Source: Seison nebaliae (Eukaryota). Taken from it: DNA of 34,193 nt. Positions 3,374 to 33,414 of the stretch are shown one piece after another. Each line of letters begins with the position of its first letter. Positions within the stretch are counted from its first letter, which is position 1. The DNA lies in NCBI GenBank assembly GCA_023231475.1, contig JALJEE010002886.1, positions 1 to 34,193 of the forward strand, in the 5' to 3' direction. Position numbers and translations under genes: made by a program. Below the pieces are notes generated by a model. That model saw only the letters and a program-made list of their open reading frames with translations. It made no database searches and was not told the DNA's origin.

Positions 3374-5577
3374 TTATTGAAGTATAGACTGTAAAGAATA
3401 ATCTCTTAATTGATTTTTATTCTCATCTTTTCTTTTTGATATATTATTCATGATGGACGTTGTTCCATTGGAAGTTGCTGGTAATGGTTGTTTAGACATT
3501 AACGATAACAAATATGAAACATTTTCATTGAAAGATTTCTGATTTGGTTTTTCCTGTTAAAAGTGAAGATTTAGAATTTTACAAATATAATATGAAAATG
3601 AACTTTCTCGTTATTTCCAATTGGTTTCTTTTCATTCAGTTCCTCTGATAATTTCATATGTTTTCTTTTTCCGTTATATTCATGGTTCTTATTGTCACAT
3701 GAATCAGACGAGTCAGATGTGGGAGATGGATGACTACGTTTATTAAACTCATTTGTAATTGATGGTTTTTGATTGATGCTGGTAGAAGATTTGTTATCAA
3801 TAGATTTGAGAATTGCTGAGAAATTTGATGAGATGCCGTTCGTGTTTGAACTGCTTTCAGATTTGTTTAAATCCGTCTTCTCCGATGGAATTATTGTAGG
3901 CAACGGCCAAAATGAAGGTAAACCATTAATTTGATTTATTTTCGAAAGAAAATTACCAATTTGTAAGGAGTCGGAAGTCGAAGAGTCTTGAATATTAGGA
4001 ATATTTAATGTGCCGTTCACTGATGGCATCGATAATTTCATTTTTTCCAAAATATTATCAAATATCTCATTTCTGCAATTCGATTGTAATTTCAACTGAT
4101 TTTGTTGTTGTTGTTGCTGCTGTTGTTGTTGCTGTTGTTGCTGTTGTTGCTGTTGTTGCTGTTGTTGAAATAGTAATTGTGTGGCGAAATGTTTAAGAAT
4201 GTTACTAGTCATCGAAGTTGAATTATCTATTTTCTGATTAGAATCGATTGATAGAGTTTTACCTTCATCGCTTGTTGTCGAAGTAGAAATTTGGTCGACA
4301 TCAATGGATGATGATGTTTGATCATTATCTGTATCATAATCTTTCACAGAATGAGATTCTAACATTTTACTAAACTTCTCGTCATCCAATTCATCATCTT
4401 CATCTTCATCATCAACTTCATCATCAATATCATCTCCAAACATTTCTCCATTATTCTTCATTCTTGTTCCGTTTTCTTTACTCATCTGCCGATGACGTCG
4501 ATGTTTATTCGAATCGAACAATTCTAATGGATAAGAGAATTGCGGATTACATCCATAATTACCATATTGCTTCTTATTTTTTAATGCTGCTGCTCTATCC
4601 CGCTGACGTCGATTTTTGAACCAGTTACCAACTTGTGTGGAAGTGAGTCCAGTCGCTTTTGCTAATTCTTTTTTTTTCTGAGGATTCGGATAGGGGTCTT
4701 GAAGATACCATTCTCTTAAATGTGTTCTGGTACGTTCTTTGAAACAATGAGTCTTCTGTTCGCCATCCCAAATTGTATTTGGCAAAGGGAACTTCTTTCG
4801 GACTCGGTATTTATCAACTGGACCAAGAGGTCTACCACGAATCCTCTCCGCTTCAATGTAATGCGCTTCTAACCACATTGCTTGTAATTTAGCATGAACC
4901 GTCATCGGTTTACTATTCGCATTAGCTGAAGATATTTTATATACATCATTTGGAAATTTATTTTTTTCAATAATCGAATATAATTCCTTAAAATTTCCCG
5001 TATGATAAGCGATAACCGCTCGACAACGTAATACAATGGAATTTTGAAGATATAATCCATTGTATTGAGGAAGAATGGAGAGAAAGTAGAGAAATTGGGC
5101 CAATTTCTCATAACATTCATCTTCTTCTAATTTCCTACAATAATCGATACATTTCTGTTGGGAACCAATTACATTAAACGGCGACTCCACCATCAACTTT
5201 TCCATGTTCTGATTGTTGATTAGAGTCATATTCGTACCATTGTTATTTGTATTATCAAGATTATCGTTAAATTCAGTCAAATTCACTTTCTTCTCATTTT
5301 TAATTAATTCGTTGTGATGATGTGAATCGTTCAAATTAGTTGGAATGGAGATATTGGTCGATTTCGACAATTCTTTCTCTTCGTCATTATGAATAGTTTT
5401 ATTCGACATGATCTCGTTACCGTTAACTGTGTTTGGGACTAATTGTTGTAATAATGTTGTAATATTATTATTAGTTAAGATGTTACTCCAAACATTCATC
5501 GTTGAAGAGAAATCGACAGAAGAAGAATCTAATGTAGTCGTAGTTGAATTAGATGAAGTTAACGATTGTTCATTCAT
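3374..5577 (-). CDS. Six3/6: Six3/6 (Optix-like) homeobox transcription factor, ~717 aa; exons 5577-3604 and 3553-3374
   Basis: SIX domain ([32 protein letters not shown]) and homeodomain with Six3/6-diagnostic QKTH and [12 protein letters not shown]. Intron 3554-3603 (GTTCAT..ACAG) joins an open exon ending DYSLQSILQ*. Confidence 0.97.
4102..4167 (-). repeat. CAA/CAG repeat encoding a 22-residue polyglutamine tract in Six3/6
   Basis: Mixed ttg/ctg triplets on the + strand, in frame with Six3/6. Confidence 0.95.
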
Positions 5578-8077
5578 ATTTTATCCATCAATTTCGAATA
5601 AATCTACTTAGAATAAGCAATTCCCAAATAATCCATATATTAGCATTATAATTAGTTATGTTGGTTAACAGAGATACTATTAATTGGAAATCGAAGAAAA
5701 TAATTGGAAATTCAGAAAAAATTGATTGGAGATTCGTATTCGTGCATCAACTAACTGATAACAAAAGAAAAAAGGGGAATCGTCGAAAAAGAAAAGAGAG
5801 AAGGTTGCTTGTCGTTATCGTGTAAATTTCAACCATATACATTACGAGTAACAAGTAGCGAAAAGGCCAATCAAAAATCTAGAATACGAAATAACTTTTC
5901 CGATTTGAACGAATATTTGAAGGATTACTTCAGAGAGGAATAGAAAGAAAACTCAGAACTATATGAATATGAACAACGTCATCTTAATAATAAAACAATA
6001 TACATCCAATACATTAAATTGGTGTAATATAATAAAACTGATTAAATTAAAATTAATACGAAACATTACGAAAATTATTAAAATTTATATTAATTAACAT
6101 TTCTAAATGTTTATCGATTAAACATGTTCAACTTATTTTTGATTGAATAAATAGATAGTTGGGAAAGTAAACTGCTTCAATCAATGTCGTACAAAAATCA
6201 TTTGGTTGGAGAACTGGTTGCCGGATAAATTTTCCATTTGGTATTGATTCATTAATAAGTGGATATAGTGCAATTATTTTACTTGTTTCACTTACACCTT
6301 GAATGAATGATTGAATGGATAGATAGTTGTAGATAAATTATTAAATGAGTTGACAAAATGAAAACAATAGGGTAAGGATAGACGTATCTGATTCGAGGTT
6401 CTTCTACGTTGAGCCTCGAAGTAAGAGAAAAGAAATGTTTCATAATTACATGTTTGACACCCAAAACAACTAATGTGTCTGATGCAAACTTTAGATAAGA
6501 ACTGAAATGTGCCATTTTCCTAATAGTTTCGATAAAGGAATATATCGATATGCAATTGGTTGAATGAACTATAATTGCTGTAATTATTTATTTTGGAAAT
6601 TGATTATATGAATTGATTATATCGAAGAATTGGACGTATGAAAGAAAACTTCCAATATAGTCAAATGAATGTGTCAATTGAAAACAGGAAAAATCATAGA
6701 AATCGATAAGGACCAAATCAAATAGTCTTCTGGTGGGCGGTGAACATGTTATTTAACAATTGAAATTTAAAGTTTGTTGATTATTTCCTGTTGGTTGGGA
6801 AGAAGACGAAGAAGAAGACGCAGAAGAAGAAGCAATTATTTAAGAATTCTCCTATCGATGTTTAAAGGAAATGGAATCGGTTTGAATAATGTCTTGATAA
6901 TGGAGAACATTGAATATAAGTATATGTTATCGTATGAATTAATCGCGGATAAATATGTCATCAGGAGAATGGGTTGAAAGCTCACGAAATACGATATGTC
7001 GTTCTGAAATAAATATGTCACATATTTCGGTAGGATGACAATACGGAATTGTTTTCGAAGAAAATTATGTGCATCTCAAATTCAGTTATCATCACTGATA
7101 TTCTTCATTATTCTCCTCTAAATTATCATTCGCTTATGATGAATGATACATAAACAAACACAACTCAGATCTTGCATACAGATATGCGATCGGCTACATG
7201 TGAATAAGAGACTCATAATAATGTATCGAAATATTTCTTACGGTTTTCATAATTTTTCCTATGCTACATCTCATATGCTCTCATTCGTCTCAATGATTAT
7301 TCGAATAGAAATAATGAGACTTGTCTCAAATTTTGTTCTTCTACGGTTGGCATTCAATTACAGAAGCTACTACAAGAGACGAATCTAGTTCGATAACAAG
7401 TGTGTGTGCAATATTTTCGGGTGGAAAATAACAAATTGACATGATATGAGATTAAACATATAGAATGATAAAAAATGCCAGGTTCATAAATTAATGAAGC
7501 CATCATCATTTTTGGTTGAATCGATGGATCGATCAATAAATAATGAGAAATGATCGTCTTATAATAATCGGTGAATATATATATATAATAATCGACTGCT
7601 CTCCGATATGGAAGTAAGAAGATTGAGAGGAGAATGCATATCCATTGGATAGAATGAAGTTACAAGTAATTAGGAAATCAGAGAACTATGAAGGAAATGA
7701 TATCAACATTCTAATGAATATGTCGAGACGAGGGGAGGAAGAATGCATTCTATTACGTATTTTTGTATGCATATCATTCGAAGAGGATAGTTTTTGTACA
7801 TTAATATCTGCTCAACAAATCCCAGTTAACATTAGAGTTATGTGTTTGATTTAAGAAGTACCACATATACAACTATAATTGAACAGACGATTATGATAAG
7901 TGATCATAATAAGTATCTCTGTTTCCCATACGAGTTAAATATTTCAATTGAATGAGAACTTCGAATAAGCGATTCGTTTCTCACTTTCTTTTCTTCTCAC
8001 ACCAACAAAGAGGAAATGAAAGAGAAGATGTAGAAGAAACATAATTATGAATAATTAATCGAATAATCTCAGAAATT

Positions 8078-12521: not shown

Positions 12522-14353
12522 TCATACATTCTTCTTTAAACTTGCTTTAATCCATTCAATATAACTGGCAAGTCTTGTATAGCCACCTTTTGTACCCTTA
12601 CATGATCGATCTAGTGGTCCAAAACTTACAATACCCAACTGCCTAAATACGTTGTTGACATAAGAGAAAGCCGGACCTCCACTGTCGCCCTAGAAAGAAT
12701 ATTTTTTATAAGTTAGAAGAGAAGTCTAACTTGACATGCGTCTTTCACTTCATTGGAATTTCCTGCACAAAATGCTTCTTTCGTATCTGTAATACTACAA
12801 GAACTTGGAAGTAGCACAGGTATTGTAACTTTCTTCAGTTTAGTTGATATAGCTCCTTTTCCATCTTCATCTGTAAGGCCCCATCCTAAAACAGTGAGAT
12901 TCTGATTAGATGTCGGTAGTTCGGTGGTGTCATAATTTGAGTTTGGCAAACATGTGGGTCTTATTCCATCATTATAAGTTAATGGGGAACATAATCGAAG
13001 GACAGCAATGTCGTTTTGTAATATTTCCGTGTTTTCAGTAAATTTTGAGTGCTAGAATCATAATTAGAAATTAATAAATGGAGAAAAAAATTTAAAGTAA
13101 CATATAGTACGTAATCAATTTTTCGTTGGAAAGAAGATGATGTTGTTAGGGAGTTTAATCTTACACTTGATTTTGTTAAATTAATGTTCGATGGAAAACA
13201 ATGGGCAGCAGTCAATATCCAGTGTTTATTAAGAATCGTCCCTCCACATAAATGATCATCACCAGATATGCTCAATTGTAGACTGACGACTGCAGGATAA
13301 TTCGAAATATCTCCAACATTAACACCACCAACTATGCGTCCCGAATTTTTACACCAATCCGAATCATCCGGTAAAGTTTTTGCATCATCGGTTTCTACAG
13401 ATGAACATTTTGAGTTTCTTAAAATACTTGATGTAAGAATGGGTGCTTAAAAAATATAAAGTTATTTAAATATTTGAAAACTTTCTAAAATTCTAAACCC
13501 ACAGTAGATTTGGTAGATGTTGTGATTTGTGTGGTAGTTATTGTTGTTGTTTTAGTAGTTGTAGCGGTAATAGGTTGGGTGGTGGACTTCGTTGTTGTTT
13601 CCGTAGGTGACTCGGTGGTAGCGGAAGATGTAGTCTAAAAAATATAATTAAGAATATTAAATTAAATGTAAATTTGACAGTAGGTGTGGTTGATGCGGTA
13701 AAAGTTGTTAGGGTAGAAATAGTAGAAATGGATGTAATTGTCGTTATGGCAGAAGTAGTTGAAGTGGAAATAGTTGTTATTAGGGTAGTTAAAGTAGTGG
13801 CGATTGTTGAAGTTCCGATAGTAGTTGGATTGACAGTAATAGTGGAATTAATTGTGGTAGTAATATTGGTGGTAATTGTGGAATTAAATGTGGTTATGTT
13901 CTGAGTTAATAATTTAATTTATTCAAACCGATTATAAACGAAGTACAAACTGTCATAATAGTTGTGGTAGTTTGATCGTCATCATCATCTTTTGTGATGA
14001 AATAGATTATTAAACCGGTCGCCGCTAGTAATAATAATGTTGCAAGAACGAGAGATACGATTAAAGGACTAAATAAATAAAGTATCTCATTATAATTTGT
14101 TCTATAATGAATGACCCAACATGTTCTTCCGAGGCCCATAATACGGACTAATCGGATAATTTGAATAATTTACAGGATAGCCAGAATTGGGATATGAAGA
14201 ATAACCGGCTCCATGATAGTTCCCCGGATTATTAGCAGAATAATTATTGGGATAAGGATATGACGATCTATACGTTGTATATTGGGGATAGCCGGAATAA
14301 CCATTAGCATTGGGATAATTATGACGATGATAAGTTGTGAATGTTTGATACAT
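12522..14353 (-). CDS. Type II transmembrane trypsin-like serine protease with Thr-rich mucin-like stalk; introns 14069-14120, 13901-13950, 13635-13678, 13446-13498, 13052-13101, 12690-12730
   Basis: Spliced product: Tyr/Pro-rich N-terminus, TM helix (LIVSLVLATLLLLAATGLIIYFI), Thr-rich stalk, R-IVGG activation site, LTAAHC, NDIAVL, DACQGDSGGP (S1 Asp, trypsin specificity). Confidence 0.93.
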
Positions 14354-14466
14354 AATTCTGATATTAAAGTACCTTTCACTATTAATCCTTCAAATGTATG
14401 TCTTAATAGTTAAGGAACATTCAAACTTCATCTTAATTAATACTATCGATATTAAAATTCATCATC

Positions 14467-14494: not shown

Positions 14495-15587
14495 TATTTG
14501 TAAAATTATTGTTTACCCACCCAAAGATCCACTTTCATTTAATTTCTTTTATCGATAGTATTAACGAGAAAATAATATGTTGGGAATTCACATCAGAAAA
14601 TCAAATTTTTTCTGAATTTAAAATTGATCAACTATGTTGAATCATTTAATATTGATAGTTTATTCGAAAAGTGTAGTTATTATATTTAATATATTATCCA
14701 TGTGAAACTATATCACTATGATCAATGTCATGTCATTATTGTCCAAACATCATATAATGTTTGCAACATTAACTAACACTTATTAAATTTAACTTGAAAT
14801 TTACAAATTATTTCCATAAGTTTTATTTATTCGTTCAGTTGCGGTAAATACAAACAGCTAACAATGCAAGTGTAAAAGTAAATTTAAACCCAATACTTTA
14901 TACTCGAATAATTTTTAATTTGAATATTGAAATATTCAACAAATTATGGAATTACCATATGAAATTCAACTTCCCATTTCACTAACAAGTTTTTTTTAAG
15001 GTAAATAGAATTGTCGATCATCCATTTAAAAAAATTTATTGAAAGCAAAAAACATGTGATCTGACGTTTCGATAAATGACGGGGAAGATGATACGACAGA
15101 GAAAAATAATAGAAAGAAGCTTTTAATTCTAAAATTTGAAAAGTTCATAATAGAAAAAGAAAAAATTAGAAAACCAAAAAATTAATTTTGACTTAGATTC
15201 ATCTTCCAACGTATAACGCAACACAATTCTGACACGTTTAACCCTTTTACAATTATCATTTATTGATGGTTTCTTAAAGGAATAAGGAAAGTATCATCAT
15301 CAGAATAGTGAATTTTTTGTTGGAAGGAACGAGATTGATTTACTTGGAAACGGTTGATGAATTCGAAATTCGAGAAAACTTTTTTAAAACTGTGTCATTT
15401 AATTAGATTCTATTGTTTAACAATCGAATAAATTGATTATTCATATTCTTCCTTCATTCATTCATTTATTTTCTTCTTCATTTACAATTTCTTTTATCAA
15501 GAAAGATCTTCATTCCAAGAAGAGAACGATAAAGATTCACATCATAAAAATCTCAATTGATTTTTCTTCTGCTGTTAAGAAAGAGAG

Positions 15588-18500
15588 ATGTTGAATGATC
15601 AAACAGATGAGAATGGTGGAATCTTGACTGATATTCCATTAGATGATGAAGATATTTCTAAAGTTCCAACTTTACCACCAGTGGCCTCATCATCAGTTGC
15701 ATCACAAAGATTTGATCCACTACAAATGGAGTCAATGATTCCTCCACAAATGATAAATATAGGAAATGAGCGTAATCTGAATAACATGACAAATCAATTT
15801 ACTAATTTAACGACGATAATGCCTCCCATGCCATCACAAATTTCGTCGATACCACCAATATCGAATAATTTTTCTCAACAACCTCCTCCATTAATCAATC
15901 CAGATGAATTATTGAAAAAATTTGTTCCTTCATCTATAATAAAATCGAAAAATCAATCCGAAAATGATCTGAAGAGTAAGTTGTCAAATGATGAAAGAGA
16001 AAGAAAACCGTCTCCATTTGAAAAACATTTAGTGAAAGATAATTCACGAGATTCTTCACCATTCTCTTCATCAAACGATTTAAAAAAAGAGTTATCATCA
16101 GGAATTCAATCGCATTCTATGAGTCATGAAAATATTGATAACATCTATCTATCTGATCAATCATTACAGAATACAGGAGAAGGAAAATTAGATTTCAATA
16201 GTTCTATGAATCAGAATGAAAATTTGATAACAACAAATCCATATGATGGATCATCAACATCCATCGATAAACAAATACCGTCTGAAATTCCATCATTAAC
16301 TTCGTCAAATTTTCAAACAACATCAACTTTACAACAACTATCATCAACAACGTTTTCAAGTCATGAAATGGTTTCTTCATTAAATCCAGTGACATTGATT
16401 GAAAAACAAATATTACCAGAAATTCCTTCATTAATTGGTAATAATTTTCAACCAATTTCAACTATACAACAACAAACATTATCAGCAATTCCACCTATTC
16501 AATCCAGAAATGTTTCTACGACATTATTAAAAGGAGATTCAGGAGAGAAACCTCCAACAATGTTCTCTGGATATGGTTCATCTCAAACTTCTTCCGGTAT
16601 GGTTCAACCGCCATTTTCAACAACACAAACTGCAATACCAGGAATGCTACCAATGGATGGTAGACTTCCTTCATTGCAAGCGATATCAACAATGTCATTG
16701 AATCATTCATTCAATCCTCCATTTGAACAATCATCATCCATGATTCCGTCAAATTCCATGAATCAGAGACCACCCATAATAGATTCAACTACTCTCACAT
16801 CGTCGAGAATGCCACTAGGGCCAATGAATCAGTCTTTAAATAAACTTCCGCCAACATCATCAATTGCTCCTTCACCAATGATGCCATTAGGATTAATGAC
16901 GCAACCTCCGTCTACGATACACACTTCTTCAGCAAGTCAACCTCCATCAATAATGCCTGAAACAACGATAAATCAACCTCCTTCAATGATGCCTCCATCG
17001 TCATCAAATGAACCTTTATCGTCAATAAGTCCTTTGACAATGAATCAATCTCCGATGATGATGTCACCATCATCAACAATTCAATCTCGTTCTATGGTGT
17101 CGGAACAAACATCAAATCAGCCAAAACGATTAATGGGACAAGTTCCTCCAACAAATGTGTCAATAGTACCAGGTCAACCTCCCATAACAATGTCATCAAA
17201 TTCTTTTGGAGAATCTCCAAATATGATGCCACGTAGTTCGACAAATCAACCACCATTTAAGGGGGCAACAAATTCTGTTGGACAAGCTGCATTTCCAATG
17301 CAGCAAACCACATTGGACCAACCCCCAATGATGCCACCAGGTTCGATGAATCAATCTTTAAATATAATTCCACCTGGTTCGTTGGGTCAGCCACCAACAA
17401 TGATGCCACAAAGTGGATTGAATCAACCTTCTAATATGATGCCACCAGGACCATTGGGTCAACCGTCAACAATGATGCCACCAGGATCAATGAGTCAACC
17501 GTCAACAATGATGCCACCAGGACCATTGGGTCAACCGTCAACAATGATGCCACCAGGAACTATGGGCCAGCCTCCGAATATGATGCCACCAGGACCATTG
17601 GGTCAGCCACCAACAATGATGCCACAAAGTGGATTGAATCAACCTCCTAATATGATGCCACCAGGATCAATGAATCAACCACCATTAATAATACCTCCAG
17701 GATCAATGAGTCAACCGCCAACAATGATGCCACCAGGATCTACGGATCAGCCTCTGAATATGATGCCACCAGGACCATTGTGTCAACCACCAATAATGAT
17801 GCCACAAAGTGGATTGAATCAACCTCCTAATATGATGCCACCAGGATCAATGAGTCAACCGCCAACAATGATGCCACCAGGACCATTGGGTCAACCGCCA
17901 ACAATGATGCCACCAGGAACTATGGGCCAGCCGCCTACAATGATGCCACCAGGACCATTGGGTCAGCCACCATCATTGATGCCACTAGGAGGAATGAATC
18001 AACCACCATCAATGATGCCACCACAAATATCTGGAATGCAACCGAATCAAATCGTTCAACCAGGAATTCAAACAATGCCACCATCAATGGGTGGAATGAA
18101 TCAACCAGGTAATCAGCAGTTCAATCAAATGGGAGGAGGAGTACCACAATCAAGTGGCCCAAAATTGAGTATGATGCCAGATAAATTATTAATTGAAGAA
18201 GATAATCGATTAAAACATGGAGAAAATGAATTATTCCGAGATGATGTAATTGGAAATGTTCCTCCACTCGTTACTACAAATTTCAAATATACTTCCTCCA
18301 GAGGTCGATGTCATCCAGCATTCATGCGATGTTCAACTTACGTCATTCCGACAACACCCGACATTTCTCGACGAATGGATATACCGATTTGTACCGTAGT
18401 TTCTCCTTTTGCTTCAGTAGACGATTATCAAATTCCGTTAATCAATTGTGGTGCTGATGGTCCTGTCCGTTGTAAGCGTTGCAAAGCATATATGGCACCA

Positions 18501-21062
18501 CAAATGCAATTTATTGATGGTGGTCAACGATTTCATTGTGTGTGGTGTGATTCGTTTACAGATGTTCCGAATGAATATTTCAATCATTTAGATCATACCG
18601 GATGTCGAATTGACAAATGGCAACGAGCAGAATTATGTTGTGGTTCATTCGAATATACGACGAACGATTTATATAAACATAATAATCGTAAAGGAGGACC
18701 AACGGCATATTTATTCATGATTGATTGTGGTCAAGAAAGTATTCAGAAAGGATTACTCGGATTAATTGCTCATAATCTTTTCGATCAGATCTTAGCTCAA
18801 TTGCCCAAAGATTCGAATGAACAATACTCAAAATGTCAAATTGCTATTGTGACTTATGACACGAAATTCTATTTCTACAAATTGACAAAAGGATATAAAC
18901 CTCAAGTGATTATCGTTAACGATTTGGAAGATGTTTTCATTCCATTATGTTCCGATCTTTTCGTTGATCTGAATGAACATGAATCTGATTTACGACATCT
19001 CCTCCAACAATTACCCGAAATGTTCATCAATAACAAAGAGAATAAATCAATGCTCTCTCCTGTACTCCAAATTGTACAACAAGCATTTAGTTCTACTCGA
19101 TTGGTCGGTCGTGCATTTATCTTCCATACTAACTTGCCTACAATGGACCTCCCAGGCAAATTGGACATCCGTGACAACAAACATATTCTCGGAACGGAAA
19201 AAGAGAAAGTTCATTTTACCAAAATTATTCCTGTTCATCTTTTTTCCTCAATATTTTTAGACTATTTTAGTTTCAGCAACGAATGAATATAAAAAATTGG
19301 GAGAAGTATGTGTTGATAATGGTGTCGGTATCAATATGTATCTCTTCCCAAAAGCATATGTTGATATCGCAACATTAAAAGATGTGACAGCGACTACTGG
19401 TGGAGAAATTCGTTTATATTCTGATTTCCAAGTTTTTTCTTAATAATATTTTATTATTTAAATTTGTATATTATTAGGTGGAAAGTGATGGGGAACAATT
19501 TTTAATTGATCTACAAAAAAATATCAAGAAACGATGTGTCTATGATGCTATTTTACGATTGAGAACGAGTCCTGGTTCGAATAAATTTCTTCTAAGGAAA
19601 ATTAAAACAAAAATAATTTTATTTTAAAGGAATTCGACCTGTTGACTTTTTGGGCAATCACCAAATGTATAATTCAACCGATGTCAATTTAGCGATTGTA
19701 GATGAAAGCAAAGGTTTCTCTTTTTTCAAATTAAAATTTAAAATATAATTTAAAAAATAAATTTAGCTGTGACAATTGTGTTGAAACATGATGACAAATT
19801 ATCAGAGGAACAAGAAATCTATTTACAAGTTAACAATTTTATTCTAAATAAAGTGAGAAATATAATTTATGTTAATTAGGCAGCATTGTTATACACAGAT
19901 TTCGATGGAGAAAGGAAAATCCGAATTCATAATCAAATATTGAAAGCATCTTCAGCATTTGAAGTGTTATACGCAGCGTGTGATGTAGATGTCATTACAA
20001 ACTATTTATTGAAGAGTAGCATCAAATGTTGTTTGGAGACATCACCGAAAATTTTGAAAGATGAACTAATAAAAAAAGTATCGAACATTTTCACTTGTTA
20101 TCGAAAAGAATGTTCGAGAAGAACATCATTAGGATCATTGATCTTACCCGATACCATGAAGACATTGCCATTATTCACTTGTTGCATTCTACGATCGAAT
20201 GCTTTCGGTTTTGGAAATACGATTACAGTAGATAGTAGATCGGAATTAATGACAAGTTTGATGGCATCGAAAGTCTATCAATCCAATCATTTCCTTTATC
20301 CAAACATCTATATTGTAGTTAGATATGGATTTTGATTCTATCAATTTCTAATCAATTCCATCAATAGACGAGTGATGAATCAGAGAAAAAAAATGAAAGG
20401 AAACATGCCGGTTTGTCTACCCCAGAACAAAATGGAGATGATTCGAAAAAGAACAATGAAAATGAGAAGGAAGAAATAGCAGAGAATGATTTTAAAGAAA
20501 GTGATCTTCCTCCTCGAATTCGTTGCAATTATGAATCGATGAAAAATAATGAAATATATTTATTAGGTTCATATCAATTTTATTCATTTAAATTAATTAT
20601 TTTAATTTCATAAATTTTAATAGAAAATGGTTATCGAATGTATTTATGGATTGGAACTGAAGTCGAACCGAAATACATCACTGATATTTTTGGTGTGAAA
20701 TCTTTACAACATGTTCAATTAGAGATGGTTAATCCAATTCTTTTATGCTTCTAACTAATTTCATTCCTTTTCAGTATAAACGTTTACCGAAAATTGGAAA
20801 TGACATTTCTATTCGACTGAATAATATGATCGACTTCTTAAACTATCGAGCACAACGATCCATGAAGGTTGGAATTTTATTTAAATTAATAAATGAATTT
20901 TAACAAAATTTATTTTAGTTCTCAATCGTAAAACAACGTGAAGGTACAGAAGGTTTATTCAGAAACATGTTGGTGGAGGATCAAGGAATTCATGAAAACT
21001 CAACTTCTTATGTACAATTCTTATGTTCGATACATGCAAAAGTAAGATCTGCGATTAATTGA
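15588..21062 (+). CDS. SEC24C/D: COPII coat subunit Sec24C/D; introns 19209-19260, 19432-19477, 19575-19629, 19714-19766, 19829-19879, 20318-20367, 20567-20623, 20728-20774, 20868-20918
   Basis: VPPLVTTNF, zinc finger GPVRCKRCKAYM...FHCVWC, YFNHLDHTG, vWA trunk (YLFMID), LYTDFDGERKIRIHN, LILPDTMKTLPL, C-terminal LVED...SYVQFLCSIH. Frame is continuous after removing 9 short introns. Confidence 0.97.
17319..18023 (+). repeat. Coding minisatellite, 36-nt / 12-aa unit (QPPxMMPPGxxx), about 20 copies, in the Sec24 N-terminus
   Basis: Recurrent atgatgccaccagga units; higher-order 180-nt periodicity (17581 vs 17761; 17641 vs 17821). Confidence 0.95.
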
Positions 21063-21501: not shown

Positions 21502-22065
21502 TTATTTTCCATTATCCATTTTCTTCGTCCGTTCATTCGTTTCATTTCGGGGAATGTTAGAAGGAGAATTGTGAAAAAGATTGATGGTAGCTGCGGGATC
21601 ATTCAACGTTAAAATATTAACAAGTGAAGTGAATATCGGTTCACTGATACTGATGGTGGAATCATTAACGAGAGTCTGAATGATATCAATCGATTCCTCA
21701 CTCACTTCACCACTCAACTCTCCACTCACCAATTCACTTAACAAGAGAATTAAATCGTTCACTTTATCTTGTTTCGATTCTTCGTTCATCGTTTCCAGGA
21801 AGTTGGGAAGAGATAAATATTGAAGTTGAATTTCCATCGACAATTTCTCATTCTCTAATTCTTTCATCTTCGTTTCAAGTTTCTCAATTTTCTCCTCTTG
21901 CAACTGAATATCCGAGTCCACACTCAAATCATTTTTTATACGATTGACTAATAAATCCTTCAATTCATTCGAAATGACACTGACATCACAATTATTTGTC
22001 ATTATGTCTAACGTACTTCTTTCCTTTTTTGATGTTATAAGCTTAACTTTCAAATATTCGAACAT
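21502..22065 (-). CDS. Uncharacterised acidic coiled-coil protein, 187 aa, apparently intronless
   Basis: Long ORF in AT-rich DNA with heptad segment LQEEKIEKLETKMKELENEKLSMEIQL; no family recognised. Confidence 0.6.
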   Translation of the reverse strand: MFEYLKVKLITSKKERSTLDIMTNNCDVSVISNELKDLLVNRIKNDLSVDSDIQLQEEKIEKLETKMKELENEKLSMEIQLQYLSLPNFLETMNEESKQDKVNDLILLLSELVSGELSGEVSEESIDIIQTLVNDSTISISEPIFTSLVNILTLNDPAATINLFHNSPSNIPRNETNERTKKMDNGK

Positions 22066-22654
22066 AAATTCAAAAATAACTTTGAAAATTTAAATAATTT
22101 GTTGTTGCATATTATTACGTGATCAGGTTAGTCATCTTCAATGTTCGAAAAGGTTGCATCCATGAAGGGGAGAAGTTAGGCTAAAAAGAAAACGTGCGTT
22201 TCAATTGATAACAGAGAATCTTTATTGCAAAGCGAATGTAATAACCGAATGATTGATTATATTCGTTTTAATTATATAAACTTGTATAAACTGTAATAGG
22301 TTATATTGTACTGAATTAAAGAATTTGCTAATACAACATTCTGTCTATTTCTTTTACTGATTTCTATTGGAATTCTTGGAATATGGTATATGAATAATTA
22401 TTTAAGAAATTTATTCAAATATCATTTTCTTTTCTAAATTCCTCCTCGCTTCTTCAAAGAACATTTTTCTTTATTAACTATTCTATAAAATTTTATCTTT
22501 TATTCTTCAAATAAAAGAAGAAACTTCGGTAAATTTCATTTTGTTTTTTGCGGCTATTCTCATTTTAATTTGAAATTTATATATTTATCTTTACTCCCCA
22601 TTACGCCTGATATACACTGACACGCATATACGTATACATACAGATATCCCTGTA

Positions 22655-22679
22655 CATATATATATATATATATATATAT
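22655..22679. repeat. (AT)n microsatellite
   Basis: About 12 uninterrupted AT units. Confidence 0.9.
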
Positions 22680-25367
22680 CCTCGCATACAATAATAAAGA
22701 ATACCAAATTTTTTAGGGTGTTTCCTTTCTTTTCTCCCTTCGCCTCTTCTACTAGTACGATAAAGTCTCTCCAAAAACTAATATAATTTCATTATAGTAA
22801 TTTCTTCACAATATGATGTTAAACAATTTACTTAAAATCATTAGAAGTTGAAGGGGAAGTGCGATAATCATTGTACTATCGAGTTGTCGAAGAACAAGTT
22901 AAAGTTTATGTAATTATTTCTTATCCTAACTATCTAAAAATTATTTTGTTTTTTATGAAATTAATTTATTCAAAAAATGAAATATTATGAAAAATTTCAG
23001 AGAAATTAATCAACTGGAAAAATTTTGTTTTACTTAGGTTTAAATTTTGTTTTAGTTACTCTGCTTCTGATAATGATTCTTGTAGGAGAATGTTATTTAA
23101 TTTGATGATATTTTGCTTTGTCAGACAATGATTAATTGTTAGGAGAACATGTTGTCAAGTATGAAACATTGCGCCCAATAATATCTGCACAATTTAATGA
23201 ATCATTAGTTATTCGTTCTTTATCGAAATGAGACGTACTTACAGAATGAAACAACTGTATAAATATTAAAAGAGAACAGTGCGTCAAGGAGTTACGTAAC
23301 TCATCAACACTTTCCACAAGAATGTACAAACATGCGTAAATACACCGTGTTATATGTAGTAACATATTCGAATTGAATAATTTCTCTTTAAATCATCCAC
23401 TTTTTCAAACTAGTCTGACAACGTATAATAAGAACAATGACCCTATGTTCTTTTATTCACCATCTAACTTTATTCCGATTATTCGTTTTTGTACACTTTC
23501 CATTATTATTCCAATTACTTATTCCTCATCCGTACTACACTCGAATTTTCAAGAAATGATAATGAACAATTTGCTCTTTTCACTCTTCCCATCATTGTCC
23601 CTTATCATTGTCGACAATATGAGCACTATGCAAATGTGAGAGACATACAAATAATTAATCAATTTATTTCCTGGTTTATACTAACGTAAGTTAATCGAAC
23701 ACAGTCAATGATGTACATTGAGAGAATATCCTGTTTCGTCAAATAATTATTTCTTTTCATTCACTGGATAATTTATTGTCATGACAAAGTGCTTATAGCC
23801 ATTGCGTTGAATAAATCATGAAAGAAATGTTATCTAGTGAAAAGTATCGAATTTTCCCTTGTGTCAGAGGAAAAAATAAAGAAAAGCAAATGCAAATAAT
23901 CCAAATAATGAACATCTCGATTTTTAATAGTAGTTTCATGTAACTAATATCATATCTATGTAATCATTTATCTTCTTATTTTATTTTGAGAATAAAACAG
24001 ATTAAGAAACTTAAATAAGATATGCCAAAAGTTAATTAAATATGTTTTTCGTTATTTTATCTGATAAAAATATCATCATTGATGGTTTCGACCTTGGCAG
24101 CATGTTTCAACAAAATTTCCAAAACAAAATCTTTATTTAGTTCATCGAACGATTTAAATTCCACCTGATTTTCAATGTTTTAATGATAACATTCAAATGA
24201 AAAATAAAGCTTTTTTCTCCATCTGACGGTTGTGTTATCAGCGGAACACTTTTTCTTCGATTGTCGAAAAAAAGTCCTGCAAATGTAGAGTGTCCGTTTC
24301 AATCGATACCTTTGTAATTATAAAACCGATAATGGAAATGATATGATCCATCATAGTTCTTCTTTTTTCATATCAATTCCTATTGTTGTTGGAAGTATTG
24401 TCATTTTTTAAGATTTTTCCTCTTTCCTTTCCTTCCAATGTTCGATGAGGCATTCGTATAAACATATTCTATTTCACAAATGATATTCATTAATCTCCAC
24501 TTCATTCACCCTGTATTTGTTGAGATGGACGGTATTTTCGCTGTATACGATATAAAATTTCTATGAGTGGATATAAAACGAAAAAGTAGTTGTTCCTTTT
24601 CGACTGTACGGAATTAATTTGAAAATAGATTTGTACTCCTCTCTCCTCTTTTTGGTGATGTGTCGAATGATTTTTTCTTTAAACCTTTATCAATTTATAA
24701 CCGAACACATAAAAAAGGATCATGTACATCACATATAGTCCTCATAATTGTGTAGGACAACCTCCATGATAAAGGGAGAGAGAGAGAGGAATGAGGGAGA
24801 TTAGCGATGGACCAAGATGGACATCTAATGTATAAAGAGATAAGTATTCAATAGAATGTGTGAAGGAAGAGAAGGATGTGAGAGAGAGAGCATTTATAAT
24901 TGATTGGTGAGGCAGAAGAAATATTATACCGATTAAGAAGAAAATTGCGGTTTCACCAATTTTTCGTCCTCTTTCATACACATACGCATACATGTACATC
25001 ATGGGAAATATTTGTCCACTTATTTCTCTTAAATCACACATTGTTCTTAAGATCCCATCGATTCATCATTCGATTCATCGCACATTTAATTCGACCAAGT
25101 TGTATGGATGGACATTCGTCTATCACTACTCTAAGAATCGACCATGAATGTATTTATATTATATTTTTTATGGTTTACTAGAGACTTCATTCTGAATTTA
25201 CTTCCATTTTGCATTTTAACATTTCTTTCTTTTTCATTCTCACAATGAACTTTCCTTATTGATTCCATCAATATCTGATATGCCGATCGAAATATTATCG
25301 TTCAAGCGATTGACTTATCATTTTGTTTGAAGAATTCACTTCTACCGAATCAGCACTCTTATCAATT

Positions 25368-25531
25368 ATACGATGATCGGAGGATGAATGTTTCACGGTT
25401 GATGTTGTTTATTTGTATTCAATTTCATATGAATCCCACTCGCTGAAGTTCAATTCATATTTAATTTGAATTCATTAAATTTTATTCCTTATTTCGCATC
25501 ACCGGGTTTCACACATCCTCTGACTTCGTAT
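25368..25531 (+). ncRNA. mir-36: miR-36 family precursor 1; predicted mature 3p UCACCGGGUUUCACACAUCCUC (25499-25520)
   Basis: 5' end UCACCGGGU is the miR-35/36 family signature. Star arm GGAGGATG...CGGTTGATG at ~25379-25404 and basal stem ATACGA/TCGTAT pair with it; loop ~90 nt. Confidence 0.72.
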
Positions 25532-25574
25532 CAACAACGACTACTTCTCTTCAATCATCATTTCAATTCAAATC

Positions 25575-25708
25575 GAAGATTCATTGCTGGAGAGTGTATC
25601 TACGGGTCGACATTGTCTTTGTACTCATTCTTTTTATAAGAATTGTCAAGAATTTATTCTTCTTACTTTATGTCACCGGGTACTACACTTTCCCACAAAG
25701 ATTCCTTC
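25575..25708 (+). ncRNA. mir-36: miR-36 family precursor 2; predicted mature 3p UCACCGGGUACUACACUUUCCC (25673-25694)
   Basis: Same seed. 5' arm TGGAGAGTGTATCTACGGGTCGACA (25588-25612) pairs with TGTCACCGGGTACTACACTTTCCCA; basal GAAG/CTTC; loop 58 nt. Confidence 0.78.
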
Positions 25709-25806
25709 ATCTCATCATTCATTTAATTTTAATTGATTTAATAAGCTAAATAAAATTTTATATATCGAAAATTCGAGAAACTCTTTGAATTTTCTGGTGA
25801 ATTCTA

Positions 25807-26374
25807 TTACAAATTCATATCGACATCTTTCTTCATTGAAGCGATCCATTCTTTAATCTTATCTTTCGGCCATGATTTGTGATTCGTTATCAAAGTTTTC
25901 ATTTTATCCGAAAATTTGTTCATAAACTTCTTAATCGGATGATTGAATCTTGTATCGTCTAACTCGTCCGCGAAATTTGACAATTGATCTATAGGAAAAA
26001 TTTGAGTAGAATTTCGGTTATTAATCGAAGAAATTTTGAAACTTTGATAATGTTTGAATTGAATAGCAGTTTCCGGCGTCCATTGATGTTTTAATGCTTT
26101 AACAATAAATGACTTATAATTGTCCATGAATTGATTGAAATCATGTACATTGCCAGTACTTCGTTTACCAAAAAGATTTGAGAAGAAAGTAGTCAGAAAG
26201 TCTAAATTTCATAATGTTTACAAAATTAAGTGTAAAAAAAATTTAAATAAGAAAAAAACTCATTTTTGCTGGTTGAATAACATTGTCATGTATAAATTGA
26301 GTAATATCAGTTTGACGTTCTTCATGAGCGAAGACTGCACAAACCGTTATTGTTAAAATAATTAAAATTTTCAT
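25807..26374 (-). CDS. Secreted pre-pro-protein, 169 aa, with GKR amidation/cleavage site; intron 26202-26259
   Basis: MKILIILTITVCAVFA signal peptide, then HEER-QTDITQFIHDNVIQPAKMNFLTTFFSNLF-GKR, spliced in frame onto ORF 25807..26127. Confidence 0.8.
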
Positions 26375-26560
26375 TTTCTCTGATTTTCCTTCAAGTCAAA
26401 ATGAAGTTTATCAGTTTATAAAATGATCATGCTTCGTCCGTTAGCAGATGGAAGAATTCTCAGCAGATTCTGTGAGATAGATTCTGGTTGTGGAAAATAG
26501 TTTTTGGAAAAATTCAGGACAACGTTTTATTTAATAGTGAAAATGTGAAATGTTTTTCTT

Positions 26561-29500
26561 TTAAGAAGTTGTTGAATCAACTTTATCGTTATCAATTTCT
26601 TTTTTCCCTAAATGCTCCTCAATGTATTGGTGGAGAATGTCTGGCACATTAATATCACAAGAATTGATATTCATTATTGGTTCCATAGCTCTCAATAAAG
26701 AATTATACAAATTGGGAAATAATGATTCCTGTTGAGCTAAAATTCCTTTGATTCGATTTCGTTCCTGGTATAATTGAATTGTAGGAAATTAAGAAATAAA
26801 TACAAACTTTTGGAGCAGAGAAACAACCTGGACAATTTTCACTGATTATCGGAAGGTTTGACGACAAAGCGAAATGTTTCAAATCTTGTTCACGACAATA
26901 GACTAAAGGACGAATTATTCTTAAATCTTTCTCTCTGGAAAAAATAAGAATTTTTATTTATCATATTCTCTAACTTCACCGTATAAGATGCTTTGATCGT
27001 TCTCAGTAATCCATTATGAAAGATTGACATAATAAAACTGGAAGTAAGTGACAAATTAATAATAAAAAGTGAATGAATACTCGAACCTTTCTGCTAAATC
27101 GTCCAAATGTTGTCCCAATGCTAAAACGTTCCATCCTTCTCTTCTGGCAGCCGTGTACATTCGTCCTCGTTTCATTCTCGAACAGAAGGAACAGATTGAA
27201 CGACATTCATCTCCAAGATCTTTCGCTTGTTGAATAATATCTGTTAAATTATTTATAAAATAAAAAATATTGGGAATTAAATAAAAAATATAACTTTGTT
27301 CTTCGTAAAGATATGGTACATTCAATTCCTTCAAATATAATTTTAACGGTGACGGATCGTAATCTGCGGATTGTGGATCGATAGTCAATGCACCAAGTTC
27401 AAATTGAATATTCTGAAATTGTTTCAATATTTCGAATAGTTGATAAATATAGTAGTTAACTTGTGCTTCCAAATAAAATTGGAGAAATCTCATTGATTGG
27501 AGTAATGTCAACGAATCCTTCCCACCTGATAAACAAACTAGTACTCGATCGTTATTCCGGATCATATCAAAATCTTTTATCGCCTTACCATAAATGAAGT
27601 AATATTTAAATTAAGACGAATAAAAATAAGAAGAAAACTCTTAGAAATGGTAATCTGATAGATTTCGGCGGAGTGTACCATAATGATTTTCTTTCCATTT
27701 TCATTTCAATTTCACAATTCTTATTTTGGAGATTAGATGTAGAATCATTTACAATCTCATGAATATCATTTGTATTTGAATTTGAAATGAGTTCATCATA
27801 TTTCTTTACATTGAAACAAGAATTGTTCAATAATGAATCATCATTTATTTTTAAGAAAATTTCTAATTTATCATAAAATTCATTTGTCTTCTGATTAATT
27901 TCTGTGAGATCGAGTGATTTCTTTATTCCATTTAATATTGATACATAATGATCTCTTTCCGATTTATTCATCAAATGAATTGCTGATGTGACTTGATTTT
28001 GTAAGAGGAACCATTGATAGTTCATCATACCATCGTCATCATCAATATTCGTAGTAATTTTGATATCATTCTCAAATTTACTTTTTTTCGGATATTTAAT
28101 AATCATTTGAAGAAGATTAATTGAGTTGATGAGATTTTGATGAAAAGACATATCGATTTTCTTCTCTGATATATTTTCATTTTTCATTTGAATTTTATTA
28201 TTATCGAAATGGAGATTATTCAAATAAATTCGATTATTATCCAGTTTCCATTCTCGATGGACATATTCCCCAGTTTGTACATCATATCGATAGAGTGGTA
28301 AGAAGAAACTTCCAAATTTACCAATAAACTTTAAAACTTCCATCACATAACATAATTCTTCCGTTGTCGTAATATAAGAGAGTGAGATTCTTGTGAAACC
28401 GGGACGATAAATCTCATATGAAGGAAATTCATTTTTTCCTTTATTCTGGTGATCATTAACATCACTAAAAAATTAATGTTACATGCTTAAATTTGAAAGA
28501 AAATTAACGTTCCGATCAATAATAATTTCTCGAATTTTTTCACTAAATCATTCGACATTCCAAGAAGATGTTGTGCATAAGGACCAGCACACGAACATCC
28601 ACCACGACTACATATCCCGAATAAATCATTCAACAAACTAGTTACGAAATTGTAATGAAGATATTGGTTGAAAATTCGGTTGGATGAATTGATTCGATTT
28701 TGTAATTGGACGTTGATCAAGAATGAAAATATTGGAAGTTTTCTCTTGAATTTCCCTAATAATTTTAACGAATTCGATTTTTTTTGAAATGTTTGCACAA
28801 TATTGTCTATCAAATATTGATCTCTTCTCTCTATTTCATCAGTTGATAAAAGTTGTTTGTTAACAAGCATGACCAATCCTGCTCTTATCGATTCCATAAT
28901 AGCTGCTGTTCCACCTTCTTCACGAATCTCTTCATTTTTTAAATAAATCTCCGAATCTTTTCGTACCTGTTCAATTCGTCAATAATGAAAATAATGGATT
29001 ACTTCTGACCAATTGTATTGTGAGAGTACTAACGAAAAATACGCTTCCACCACCACAATTGAAAGGAATTGGATTGTTCAATAATTTCTTTTTAACAATT
29101 AATATTCCTGGAGTTTGAGGACCACCTAAGAATTTGTGCATTGAAAAATACATTGCATCTTTTCTCGTCAAATATTTCATTTGTCCATCAACTGATGGAT
29201 TCATATTGAGTGAAACATAAGGTGCGGACGCACTATAATCCCAGAAAACTAAAGAATCATTTTCATGCATTATTCTCGTGATCAAATCAATCGGTTGTTC
29301 AATTCCATTAATATTCGATGCACCATTAAATGTTCCTAAAAGGGATTTTGATATTGAATGAAATTTTTAAAGTTTAATGAAGAATTTTACCGATTATTTG
29401 ACGAGATGATGATGATTTTCTTAATTTAATCAATTCGCCTTTCAATTGGTCAATGTCAATTAAACCGGAATCAATATCTTCATTAATGATGATCATTTCT

Positions 29501-30094
29501 TCACAAACTTCTTTCCATGGTAACAGATTCGAATGATGTTCGAACAAAGATGAAATTATTATCTAACAAAAAGGTTTTTTTTAGATAATTGATATCAATT
29601 TGAATTAAACCGGTTTAGTTTGAAGATTTAGACAATGTATCAATAAATGAACAGCAGCTGTAGATCCACTTCCAATGAATATAACAGCATCCCCATCATC
29701 TGCATTGGTACTACTTCGAATAATTTGTCGTGATTCATCTCGAAGCATCGTCGTAATTAATGCATTTCTATTTAATCTCGTATGAGTATTCGCATAAAAT
29801 GGAAGACATTCTCTCAAAATAAATTGTTCTATAAATTCCAATGATTGACCTGATGCTGCATAATCACAATAAATAGCTAAAATAAATGAAAAATAGTGAT
29901 AAAACAGTTTTGTATTAAAAGACAGTTCAACTTTTCACTTGGCCGAAACATGTAGTAAATTGACCATTTTCTATTAACTGACTTCTCAAATATTTTATTA
30001 ATCTTTCGTAATATTGTTCGTTGTGTTGGGAAGCATCAAATATTATTTCAGATAATTTACCATCAACATGGTGGTAAAAATTACGATAACTCAT
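26561..30094 (-). CDS. Fusion protein: class V PLP cysteine desulfurase-like domain + TtcA-type PP-loop tRNA thiolase; introns 29877-29931, 29563-29610, 29336-29390, 28967-29033, 28465-28508, 27584-27638, 27413-27460, 27241-27294, 27038-27086, 26935-26974, 26765-26807
   Basis: N-half: YCDYAASG, YANTHT, EHHSNLLPW, DYSASAP, SMHKFLGG (PLP Lys), EEGGT, RGGCSCAGPY. C-half: DFDMI, LSGGKDS, ICSFCSRMKRG, LGQHLDDLAES, IIRPL, ENCPGC. One continuous spliced frame. Confidence 0.92.
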
Positions 30095-30923: not shown

Positions 30924-31972
30924 TTACTCGATGAACGGTATACCAGAGAAAGTGTTAAGACGATAAATGGCGAATTTGTTTTTGTATTCATTTTGTAATA
31001 AGTCATCTTCTAGTCTAATACGATTCTGGAAGAATTTCCATCCGACGAAAGTGAGAAAGAATAAGGAACAATAATTCTTTAGCATCAATTGACCTCCCAT
31101 AACCCAAAGAAGCCAACCGGCATAAGCAGGATGTCTCATATAATGGAAAATTCCACTAGTAACTAAATTGGCATCTTTGGTTGAACGACTTTCAAAATCA
31201 TCTTCAATAACATGAGAGAAATTTGAACGAAGAGAAACAAACGACGATTTTCTCAAGATCTCTCCTCCCAAAATCATTGCTAATCCATACCATCTTATGG
31301 AATTTGGAAAGATATCTTTACCAGTTGTCGATGCATAATGCATAGAGAAGAATTCGACACAACTTAATAAAATTGCCATATGATAATGCATCGAATGACT
31401 CATGAGGAAGGAATCATTCTTTAATGTTCTCGGCGTATAGAGAGCGGTGAATACGAATTCCGTCATATGAAATAGAGAAACGGCTGTACTATAAGTGAAG
31501 AACCATTTCCATGGTATACGTGCGTCTAAAATACCATACGTACTGGCGCCACATGCAGTTCCCAGGATACTACTTCTGACAAATATCTGAAAAGAAATAG
31601 TTTGAGAGAAAACACAAAAAAAGTATCAACTTCACTCAATCTCAATTTCGGATCAAAAAATTCTTCTCGTTTTCTGAACTTTCGATAGGAAATTAAAGCT
31701 GCGATCGTTCCAGCTCCAATGAGAAGAAGTAGAAACGGTTTTTGATATGAAGAATATTTGATTTCTTTTAAAGCAAATTTCACATTTTTTGTCCGAATGG
31801 CTTGTTTGAAGAATCTGGAACAAATTGATTTGATTGTTAACTTCTTTACATAATTTAACAGAATGAAAGACGAAGTAGACACAATACCACCGGCGAATCC
31901 ACCAATAGCTACATTAAGACACCATTCTCCATTATTGCGATAGTGTGCTTGCATATAATGCGCTGCGTACAT
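30924..31972 (-). CDS. ICMT: Protein-S-isoprenylcysteine O-methyltransferase, ~334 aa; intron 31587-31630
   Basis: SLFHMTEFVFTA, DSFL, GEILRK, NFSH, LVTSGIFHYMRHPAYAGW, FFQNRIRLED. Start at 31972 is inferred; a further in-frame 45-nt GTT..CAG intron near 31815-31859 is possible. Confidence 0.9.
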
Positions 31973-32241
31973 TGAAACGTGAAAAATTAATTTAAAGACG
32001 AATAAATTCTGTAAAAATGGGATTCCTGAGAAAAAATGAGAAAATTTGACAAATAAATATTTTGTTTGTTTTCTAATTATTTCATCATATTCTTCACAAG
32101 AAACCAATAAAGAAAATGTTGAAAACTTTGATAACAAAGAAATTTCTGATAAATTTTATGTTCTTTCAAAAAGGAAATTGAATTGTGTAAATAGAGAGAG
32201 AGAACATACAAGAAATTTGTTTTTGAGTAAATATGGGAAAT

Positions 32242-33093
32242 TTAGAGAAGTGATGTATTTATATAATCGATGAAATGTGTAGTGATCAATTGAATATTTG
32301 TGGAATGAGTTAATTCCTTATTTCGTTGACGAAATTGGGTAGCAACTCGTTTGATCTCTGCTTTCCTGTAATCTCTTTTTAGCATAAATGGAATTTTACT
32401 GTTCTCAATCGGAATTTCAGTAACTGGAATGACATCTTTCATCTTCTCTAATAGTTCCAATTGAATATTATTTATGATTTGTCCGAACGATATGATGTTG
32501 GTGGAAGAGACGATGGTGGTGGGAAGTGTGGCCATATTCGGTTTCTGTTTCATTCCATCAATTATCAAATTTAATACTTGTTTCATTGACAATTTAATTT
32601 TTTCTTCATTATAAGAATTGAAAATTTCGATTAATGGCAATTCCCATCTATCATCAACAGAGGGATATTCGAAACGTTGTTGAACTGCTTCAATCGTTGA
32701 TGAATGATATGTTTTGAGTGAATGATTTCTTCTCAATAATTCATCAATTCCTACATTCATCAAAATTAAACATTGTGTAGTCTCTCGTTCTTTACATAGA
32801 CAATAAAGTTCATAACGATATCCTTTTATATAATTAGCTGCGTCAACAATTACAATTTTTTCTTGGTCCAAATGATGAACGATATTCCCTTTAATTAATG
32901 CACGATGTTGTTTTTCATTATCCTTGTCCAAATACATCGCTTCTTTACTCATATTGATCGTCTTGAGAAGTTCATCTTCATCAACTAAATGAACGTTCGA
33001 ATAATTTTCATCTTCTTCGATAAAATTTTTTAATTTCCGAACAAATTCTGTTTTACCGCTCATCATATTCCCAACCATTGTGATAAGAGGCAT
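32242..33093 (-). CDS. KTI12: KTI12 Elongator-associated P-loop protein, intronless
   Basis: MPLITMVGNMMSGKT P-loop, EKQHRA, DAANYIKGYRYELYC, RFEYP...RWELPL, KPNMAT. Confidence 0.95.
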   Translation of the reverse strand: MPLITMVGNMMSGKTEFVRKLKNFIEEDENYSNVHLVDEDELLKTINMSKEAMYLDKDNEKQHRALIKGNIVHHLDQEKIVIVDAANYIKGYRYELYCLCKERETTQCLILMNVGIDELLRRNHSLKTYHSSTIEAVQQRFEYPSVDDRWELPLIEIFNSYNEEKIKLSMKQVLNLIIDGMKQKPNMATLPTTIVSSTNIISFGQIINNIQLELLEKMKDVIPVTEIPIENSKIPFMLKRDYRKAEIKRVATQFRQRNKELTHSTNIQLITTHFIDYINTSLL

Positions 33094-33414
33094 TCTTACG
33101 AAATCGAAGAGTGAATCTCAAAAAATGATTCCCTAAACTAACATTTTGAAAGAATTAATCTTTCCCTTCATCCTTTCCTCAAATACATGACATATTCGAA
33201 CAACTATTATCTGTTAATTTCTTTCTCATTCTGAACAATAATTTGCCATATTTTATCTTCATTATTTATTTAATTACACAGACTTATCGTTATATTTTAC
33301 AAAATTTAATATTAAACATTCGAATTATAACTTTTTAATAAAAAGTTTTTATTAGAACAATTAGTGCTTGTAATAAATTTCTAAAAAATATAAAAGAATA
33401 AACTATAATAAAAA

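Follow-up and report, generated by a model that had tools for sequence, protein, structure and literature searches.

We consider it very probable that the 34,193-nt window (the whole stretch of Seison nebaliae DNA that was analyzed) carries two hairpins of the microRNA family MIR-36, likely co-transcribed from the plus strand, from which the ordinary Drosha-Pasha/Dicer route probably yields guides of 22-23 nt. Hairpin 1 with its flanks (25352-25550) is identical to the published gene Mir-36-P21 over 199 of 199 nt, and hairpin 2 with its flanks (25559-25725) to Mir-36-P22 over 167 of 167 nt, as compared by eye with rows 37 and 89, respectively, of Table S1B, a table of MirGeneDB loops with 30-nt flanks in the supplement of PMC12553114 (Javad-zada et al., 2025). 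Each of the two mature sequences was found once in the supplements of that article (Table S1B), and no difference from the published entries was found in hairpins, flanks, mature and star sequences or loops. Owing to this identity, the feature is genuine but already known, and it has little value as a discovery, since the two loci and the long-looped hairpins of Seison are in print. The neighbourhood of the two genes, which lie 68 nt apart, is visible in the window, while the rows of Table S1B do not mention it.

The first precursor (139 nt, 25382..25520, plus strand; Mir-36-P21) consists of a 23-nt star (5p) arm (25382..25404), a 94-nt Dicer-excised region which begins with UUGU and is mostly a paired extension (25405..25498), and a 22-nt mature 3p arm (25499..25520). 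It is followed by a 68-nt spacer (25521..25588, plus strand), which accommodates the two basal stems and, at +15 and +18 downstream of hairpin 1, CNNC motifs. The second precursor (107 nt, 25589..25695, plus strand; Mir-36-P22) comprises a 24-nt star (5p) arm (25589..25612), a 60-nt Dicer-excised region also beginning with UUGU (25613..25672), and a 23-nt mature 3p arm (25673..25695) with CNNC at +13 and +18 downstream; the arm ends are those of Table S1B. The seed CACCGGG occupies positions 2-8 of the mature sequence and comes from the 3' arm in both hairpins, as is characteristic of MIR-36, while the two mature sequences diverge after position 9. The family is a protostome one, which agrees with the identity of both entries to those of a rotifer, and the same seed was present in most of the Mir-36 rows of Table S1B that were examined. 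The preliminary description, made from the sequence alone, had placed the mature 5' ends at 25499 and 25673 and had assigned both hairpins to the MIR-36 family with expression from the 3p arm; the curated entries agree on all these points, and its loop lengths of about 90 and 58 nt correspond to 94 and 60 nt according to the curated arm ends.

An exact search of the window recovered the 8-mer TCACCGGG in exactly two copies, at 25499 and 25673 on the plus strand, 174 nt apart, just as had been claimed before. By chance, 0.16 copies would be expected, and only one of 100 shuffles of the window gave two copies. No third copy of the seed was found in the window with up to one mismatch allowed per 9 nt, nor any 7-nt seed-match site elsewhere in it. 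Each copy opens a 3' arm, and both hairpins have a 5' arm complementary to it as well as a basal stem, so that the predicted folds bear out this part of the preliminary description as well. The folding check which it had proposed gave -43.9 kcal/mol (z -4.95) for hairpin 1 (25368-25535) and -34.6 kcal/mol (z -3.95) for hairpin 2 (25575-25710), neither value being equalled by any of 200 shuffles. Structure alone is non-discriminating here, since the two hairpins ranked 18th and 24th among the more than 150 stem-like regions of a loose de novo scan. An Rfam search of the whole window at the gathering score produced no hits, and none of the 11 weak hits in the region 22000-26600 belonged to a mir-35/36 model; the expectation that standard predictors would miss such precursors was thus justified as far as Rfam is concerned. 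The case cleanly confirms that long-loop microRNAs missed by Rfam can be spotted by a reader of sequence.

When the curated arm ends are placed on the predicted folds, both duplexes have 3' overhangs of 2 nt at the Drosha end as well as at the Dicer end. Canonical microRNA arms are paired over a minimum of 16 positions. The predicted mature/star pairs number 13 in hairpin 1 (14 at 12-18°C) and 16 in hairpin 2, the database mean being 19 +/- 1.6 according to the MirGeneDB 3.0 paper (PMC11701709); both hairpins are curated entries all the same. With respect to processing motifs, defined as in that paper (basal UG, apical UGU, CNNC, mGHG/CmR), UGU directly follows the 5p arm and CNNC stands at +18 in both hairpins, a basal UG at -14 is absent from both, and the -6/+4 mismatch with G at +5 occurs in hairpin 2 only. 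The UUGU with which both loops start puts the known apical UGU motif at the junction.

Long loops are found throughout the species. Among the 29 Seison rows of Table S1B the loops range from 34 to 170 nt with a median of 62 nt, 26 of them being at least 42 nt long, and those of P21 and P22 take only the 5th and the 16th places by length. Long loops throughout Seison were stated in two papers of 2025 (PMC12256650; PMC12553114), of which the former gives hairpin lengths of about 75-175 nt with a mean of 117 nt (Herlyn et al., 2025). The earlier suggestion that the processing machinery of this animal tolerates long precursors is consistent with all 29 tabulated hairpins. Compared with the MIR-36 genes of other protostomes (Caenorhabditis, flatworms, octopus, Adineta), the Seison pair has in common the 3'-arm seed and the occurrence of tandem paralogues, at least in the rows examined, while at 94 and 60 nt its loops exceed all others in the first 30 of 97 Mir-36 rows of the table, which is apparently sorted by loop length. 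The next ones within these 30 rows belong to Schistosoma (54 and 54 nt), Gyrodactylus (48 nt) and Echinococcus (40 nt), whereas the loops of Adineta Mir-36-P26a/b measure 19 nt.

Both excised regions, of 94 and 60 nt, exceed the threshold of at least 42 nt which PMC12553114 sets for extended-hairpin microRNAs, and both are predicted to be mostly paired extensions rather than open loops. The pair shares with Drosophila mir-989, Daphnia mir-375/let-7 and lepidopteran mir-12, as these are presented in that article, an excised region longer than 42 nt; like theirs, this region is predicted to be largely paired, more clearly in hairpin 1 than in hairpin 2, and to have a bulge adjoining the dicing site. 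In those animals, however, the lengthening is confined to single families, whereas in Seison it extends to nearly the whole complement; at the same time, the lengths in the Seison pair are modest against lepidopteran mir-12 (>1 kb). The constraint on precursor length was named an open question in the MirGeneDB 3.0 paper (PMC11701709).

A motif at the loop start specific to Seison was considered and rejected, since a similar bias is shared with Brachionus and is therefore not special to Seison. As counted by eye, 17 of the 29 Seison loops begin with UUG and 22 have G at loop position 3; for the first 30 of 45 Brachionus rows the corresponding numbers are 9 and 22, while a UUG start was found in three of 30 mollusc rows examined and in one of 19 acanthocephalan rows. 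In both Seison and Brachionus the G at position 3 occurs mostly as part of UUG or UAG, which is a rotifer form of the apical motif.

Close to the Dicer cut, each fold contains a large pyrimidine-rich bulge predicted on the 3' strand, of 15 nt in hairpin 1 (25481..25495, plus strand, a 1x15 internal loop) and of 18 nt in hairpin 2 (25652..25669, plus strand, a 2x18 internal loop). The two bulges stand in the same register, the last nucleotide of each lying 4 nt ahead of the mature 5' end. Their mean P(unpaired) at 12-37°C is 0.91-0.93 in hairpin 1 and 0.79-0.92 in hairpin 2. The asymmetry of the bulge was matched by seven of 300 loop shuffles for hairpin 1 and by 21 of 300 for hairpin 2, and thus goes beyond chance for hairpin 1 only, being borderline for hairpin 2. 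The stability of the loop fold was matched by one of 300 and by 71 of 300 shuffles, respectively.

In the processing scheme that we propose, a single primary transcript, presumed from the 68-nt spacing, would carry both hairpins, and Drosha would crop them above their basal stems to yield the precursors of 139 and 107 nt. According to the ruler model, Dicer places its cut at a distance of about 22 nt from the cropped end, which makes the length of the loop of little importance to it. The Dicer cut would release the long loops, the 3' arms, which start with U, would be loaded into Argonaute, and the two guides with one seed would repress a common set of mRNAs, probably in development. Pasha would be unable to reach the distant tip, and its docking site would be formed by the UGU which directly follows the 5p arm and by the large 3'-strand bulge. 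Such docking next to the Dicer cut is the tentative step of the scheme, and we give it somewhat less than an even chance.

The serious competitor of this step, and of this step alone, is a reading in which the same microRNAs are produced, while the long loops are neutral, having arisen through relaxed control of length in this lineage, neither the 3' bulges nor the stems of the loops serve any function, and Pasha requires only the junction between single and double strand; it comes close to an even chance of being right. Since all 29 Seison loops are at least 34 nt long, no locus-specific reason for the length is necessary, and the values for hairpin 2 given above, both for fold stability and for asymmetry, lie near the range of its shuffles. 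The loops of the two paralogues are, moreover, only weakly alike, their similarity being matched by 112 of 2000 shuffles, which is not significant. Neutrality of the loops is, however, at odds with hairpin 1, the loop of which surpasses 299 of 300 shuffles in folding stability and shows an asymmetry rarely reached by them, as well as with the pyrimidine-rich composition and the identical position of both bulges relative to the mature 5' end. It also has to face the observation, reported in PMC12553114, that long loops which were unpaired or had no bulge were not processed in fly cells.

The fly data of the same source bear on the side of the bulge as well. Processing of fly mir-989 requires a bulge near the dicing site together with a paired extension, and it was blocked when the bulge was shifted from the 5p to the 3p arm (PMC12553114), which argues against docking at a 3'-strand bulge in the fly and speaks for the neutrality of the Seison loops. 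The mir-989 bulge itself is located on the 5p arm, whereas the one predicted in the Seison pair is on the 3' strand. A re-wired Microprocessor of Seison, in which the pyrimidine-rich 3'-strand bulge, three base pairs past the Dicer cut, would serve as the internal dock for Pasha and mirror the mir-989 rule, is a bold proposal, and we regard it as unlikely. If true, this mirror-image dock would explain the loss of the length limit across the entire microRNA complement of Seison and would make the constraint on precursor length directly testable. Irrespective of that, both hairpins are ready test substrates for precursor-length limits, with the predicted bulge on the side which fails in the fly. 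No discussion of the bulge side in Seison was found in the available parts of PMC12553114, PMC12256650, PMC11701709, PMC10435380, PMC8351084 and bioRxiv 10.64898/2026.05.19.726197, although figures or MirGeneDB pages may cover it; the main text of PMC12553114 contains neither 'mir-36' nor 'UGU', and PMC12256650 contains none of the words Dicer, Drosha and Pasha.

A quite different route, in which the long hairpins would enter the endogenous siRNA (hpRNA-like) pathway without the Microprocessor and the miR-36-like reads would be one of several phased products, is very improbable. Instead of a long near-perfect stem with several phased duplexes, both loci have short stems broken by many loops and mismatches, with one curated duplex of mature and star species each; basal stems are present, and the Drosha end carries the 2-nt overhangs. 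Besides, orthologous families take the canonical route. What can be said for an hpRNA origin is that small hpRNAs of the fly fall into the same size range as these precursors of 107-139 nt, and PMC12553114 cautions against this overlap.

Expression of the pair is reported in the literature, our basis being the statements of published papers. According to PMC12256650, small-RNA data contained every one of the Seison microRNAs, and curation expected both arms, 5' homogeneity and 2-nt offsets. In the expression sheet of the same article, two Mir-36 rows contain Seison values of 748 and 1508 RPM; these rows are labelled after Adineta paralogues, and the values are assigned to neither P21 nor P22. 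Seison Mir-184, with about 271,000 RPM, is far above both values. For annelids, one of these two Mir-36 rows contains 47 in the early embryo, 174 in the late embryo, 5494 in the larva and less than 2 in adult parts (PMC12256650), and these stage values are consistent with a developmental role.

The family matrix of the same work (PMC12256650, Supplementary File 1, sheet 1) gives Mir-36 a score of 0 in every one of the 25 syndermatans, and Mir-8 a score of 1 in Seison. Table S1B lists two Mir-36 and no Mir-8 genes among the 29 Seison rows and includes Adineta Mir-36-P26a/b as well, and Seison has 0 in the Mir-8-P16 row of the expression sheet (PMC12256650). The MIR-36 column of the matrix thus appears to be wrong, being contradicted by the database of the same group and by the expression sheet of the article itself; Figure 1a of that article may differ from it. 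If Mir-36 and Mir-8 were exchanged, the Seison total would stay at 14 of 44 families; in Adineta, the losses would decrease from 10 to 9, as counted by eye. A corrected MIR-36 column would shift the loss counts by one family in the species bearing MIR-36.

The view that one of the hairpins, with hairpin 1 as the likeliest candidate, is a duplicate in decay that yields little or no mature RNA deserves hardly any weight, for the low number of its predicted duplex pairs (13-14), the RPM values not given per locus and the zero score of the family in one published matrix are opposed by the curation of both loci with distinct mature and star sequences, by the two non-zero Seison values and by the fold of hairpin 1, which is the stronger of the two.

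Contigs of the runs X1, X2 and X5 carry the stretch unchanged; they are possibly the window's own source and so argue only against an assembly artefact. The run X5 contains, in addition, a 408-nt contig (record 15) with a depth of 4.7 versus about 30, which was aligned over positions 25672-26082 of the window. It has two differences in the 46 nt at 25672-25717, followed by about 180 nt unlike the window and by two later pieces with seven differences in 52 nt and six in 44 nt. This single low-depth contig points to the existence of a diverged copy, the best kept part of which would be the mature arm of hairpin 2. Two lineages of Seison nebaliae with mitochondrial genomes 82% identical have been described (PMC8351084).

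The cluster is situated in a stretch that looks gene-free, with a Sec24 gene on one side of it and an aminotransferase-V/PP-loop gene of the minus strand on the other. The Sec24 gene (15579-21040, plus strand) has an N-terminal part with many proline/methionine-rich repeats of about 13 residues. On the other side, aminotransferase class V (cysteine desulfurase-like) is matched by consecutive exons at 26561-29934 of the minus strand with E-values of 4e-11 and 8e-5; a weak match to the PP-loop domain ATP_bind_3 (E 8e-5, below the cut-off) comes after them, and this region is possibly one fused desulfurase and TtcA/Ctu1-like gene. Nearer to the cluster, two minus-strand frames without Pfam hits flank it, one of 195 codons (21502-22089) and one of 133 codons (25807-26208), the latter being probably a chance frame. 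A purine-rich segment at 24770-25000, with GA repeats followed by CA/TA repeats, lies about 400-600 nt upstream of hairpin 1 and is a possible promoter region of the cluster. The AATAAA at 25749 was discounted as a signal, being too frequent in the surrounding DNA.

Farther away, a Six3/6 (Optix-like) homeobox gene occupies one long open frame on the minus strand (3571-5580); in this animal gene, about 14 extra residues interrupt the SIX domain, a long run of glutamines is present as well, and the best relatives are 62-68% identical. The open frames at 1006-2721 gave no Pfam hit; the one at 1449-1886 (plus strand) may resemble the endonuclease domain of a non-LTR element, and that at 2101-2721 (minus strand) the tail of one. 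Trypsin-family protease exons at 12713-13446 and 13538-14409 (minus strand) come after threonine-rich and tyrosine/proline-rich frames, and together they may possibly form one membrane-anchored protease. A protein search with KTI12 retrieved nothing but KTI12 itself among 810 candidates. At 30924-33117 of the minus strand, this gene, an unassigned membrane-like protein and ICMT are tightly packed as three frames, the last two overlapping as stop-to-stop frames.
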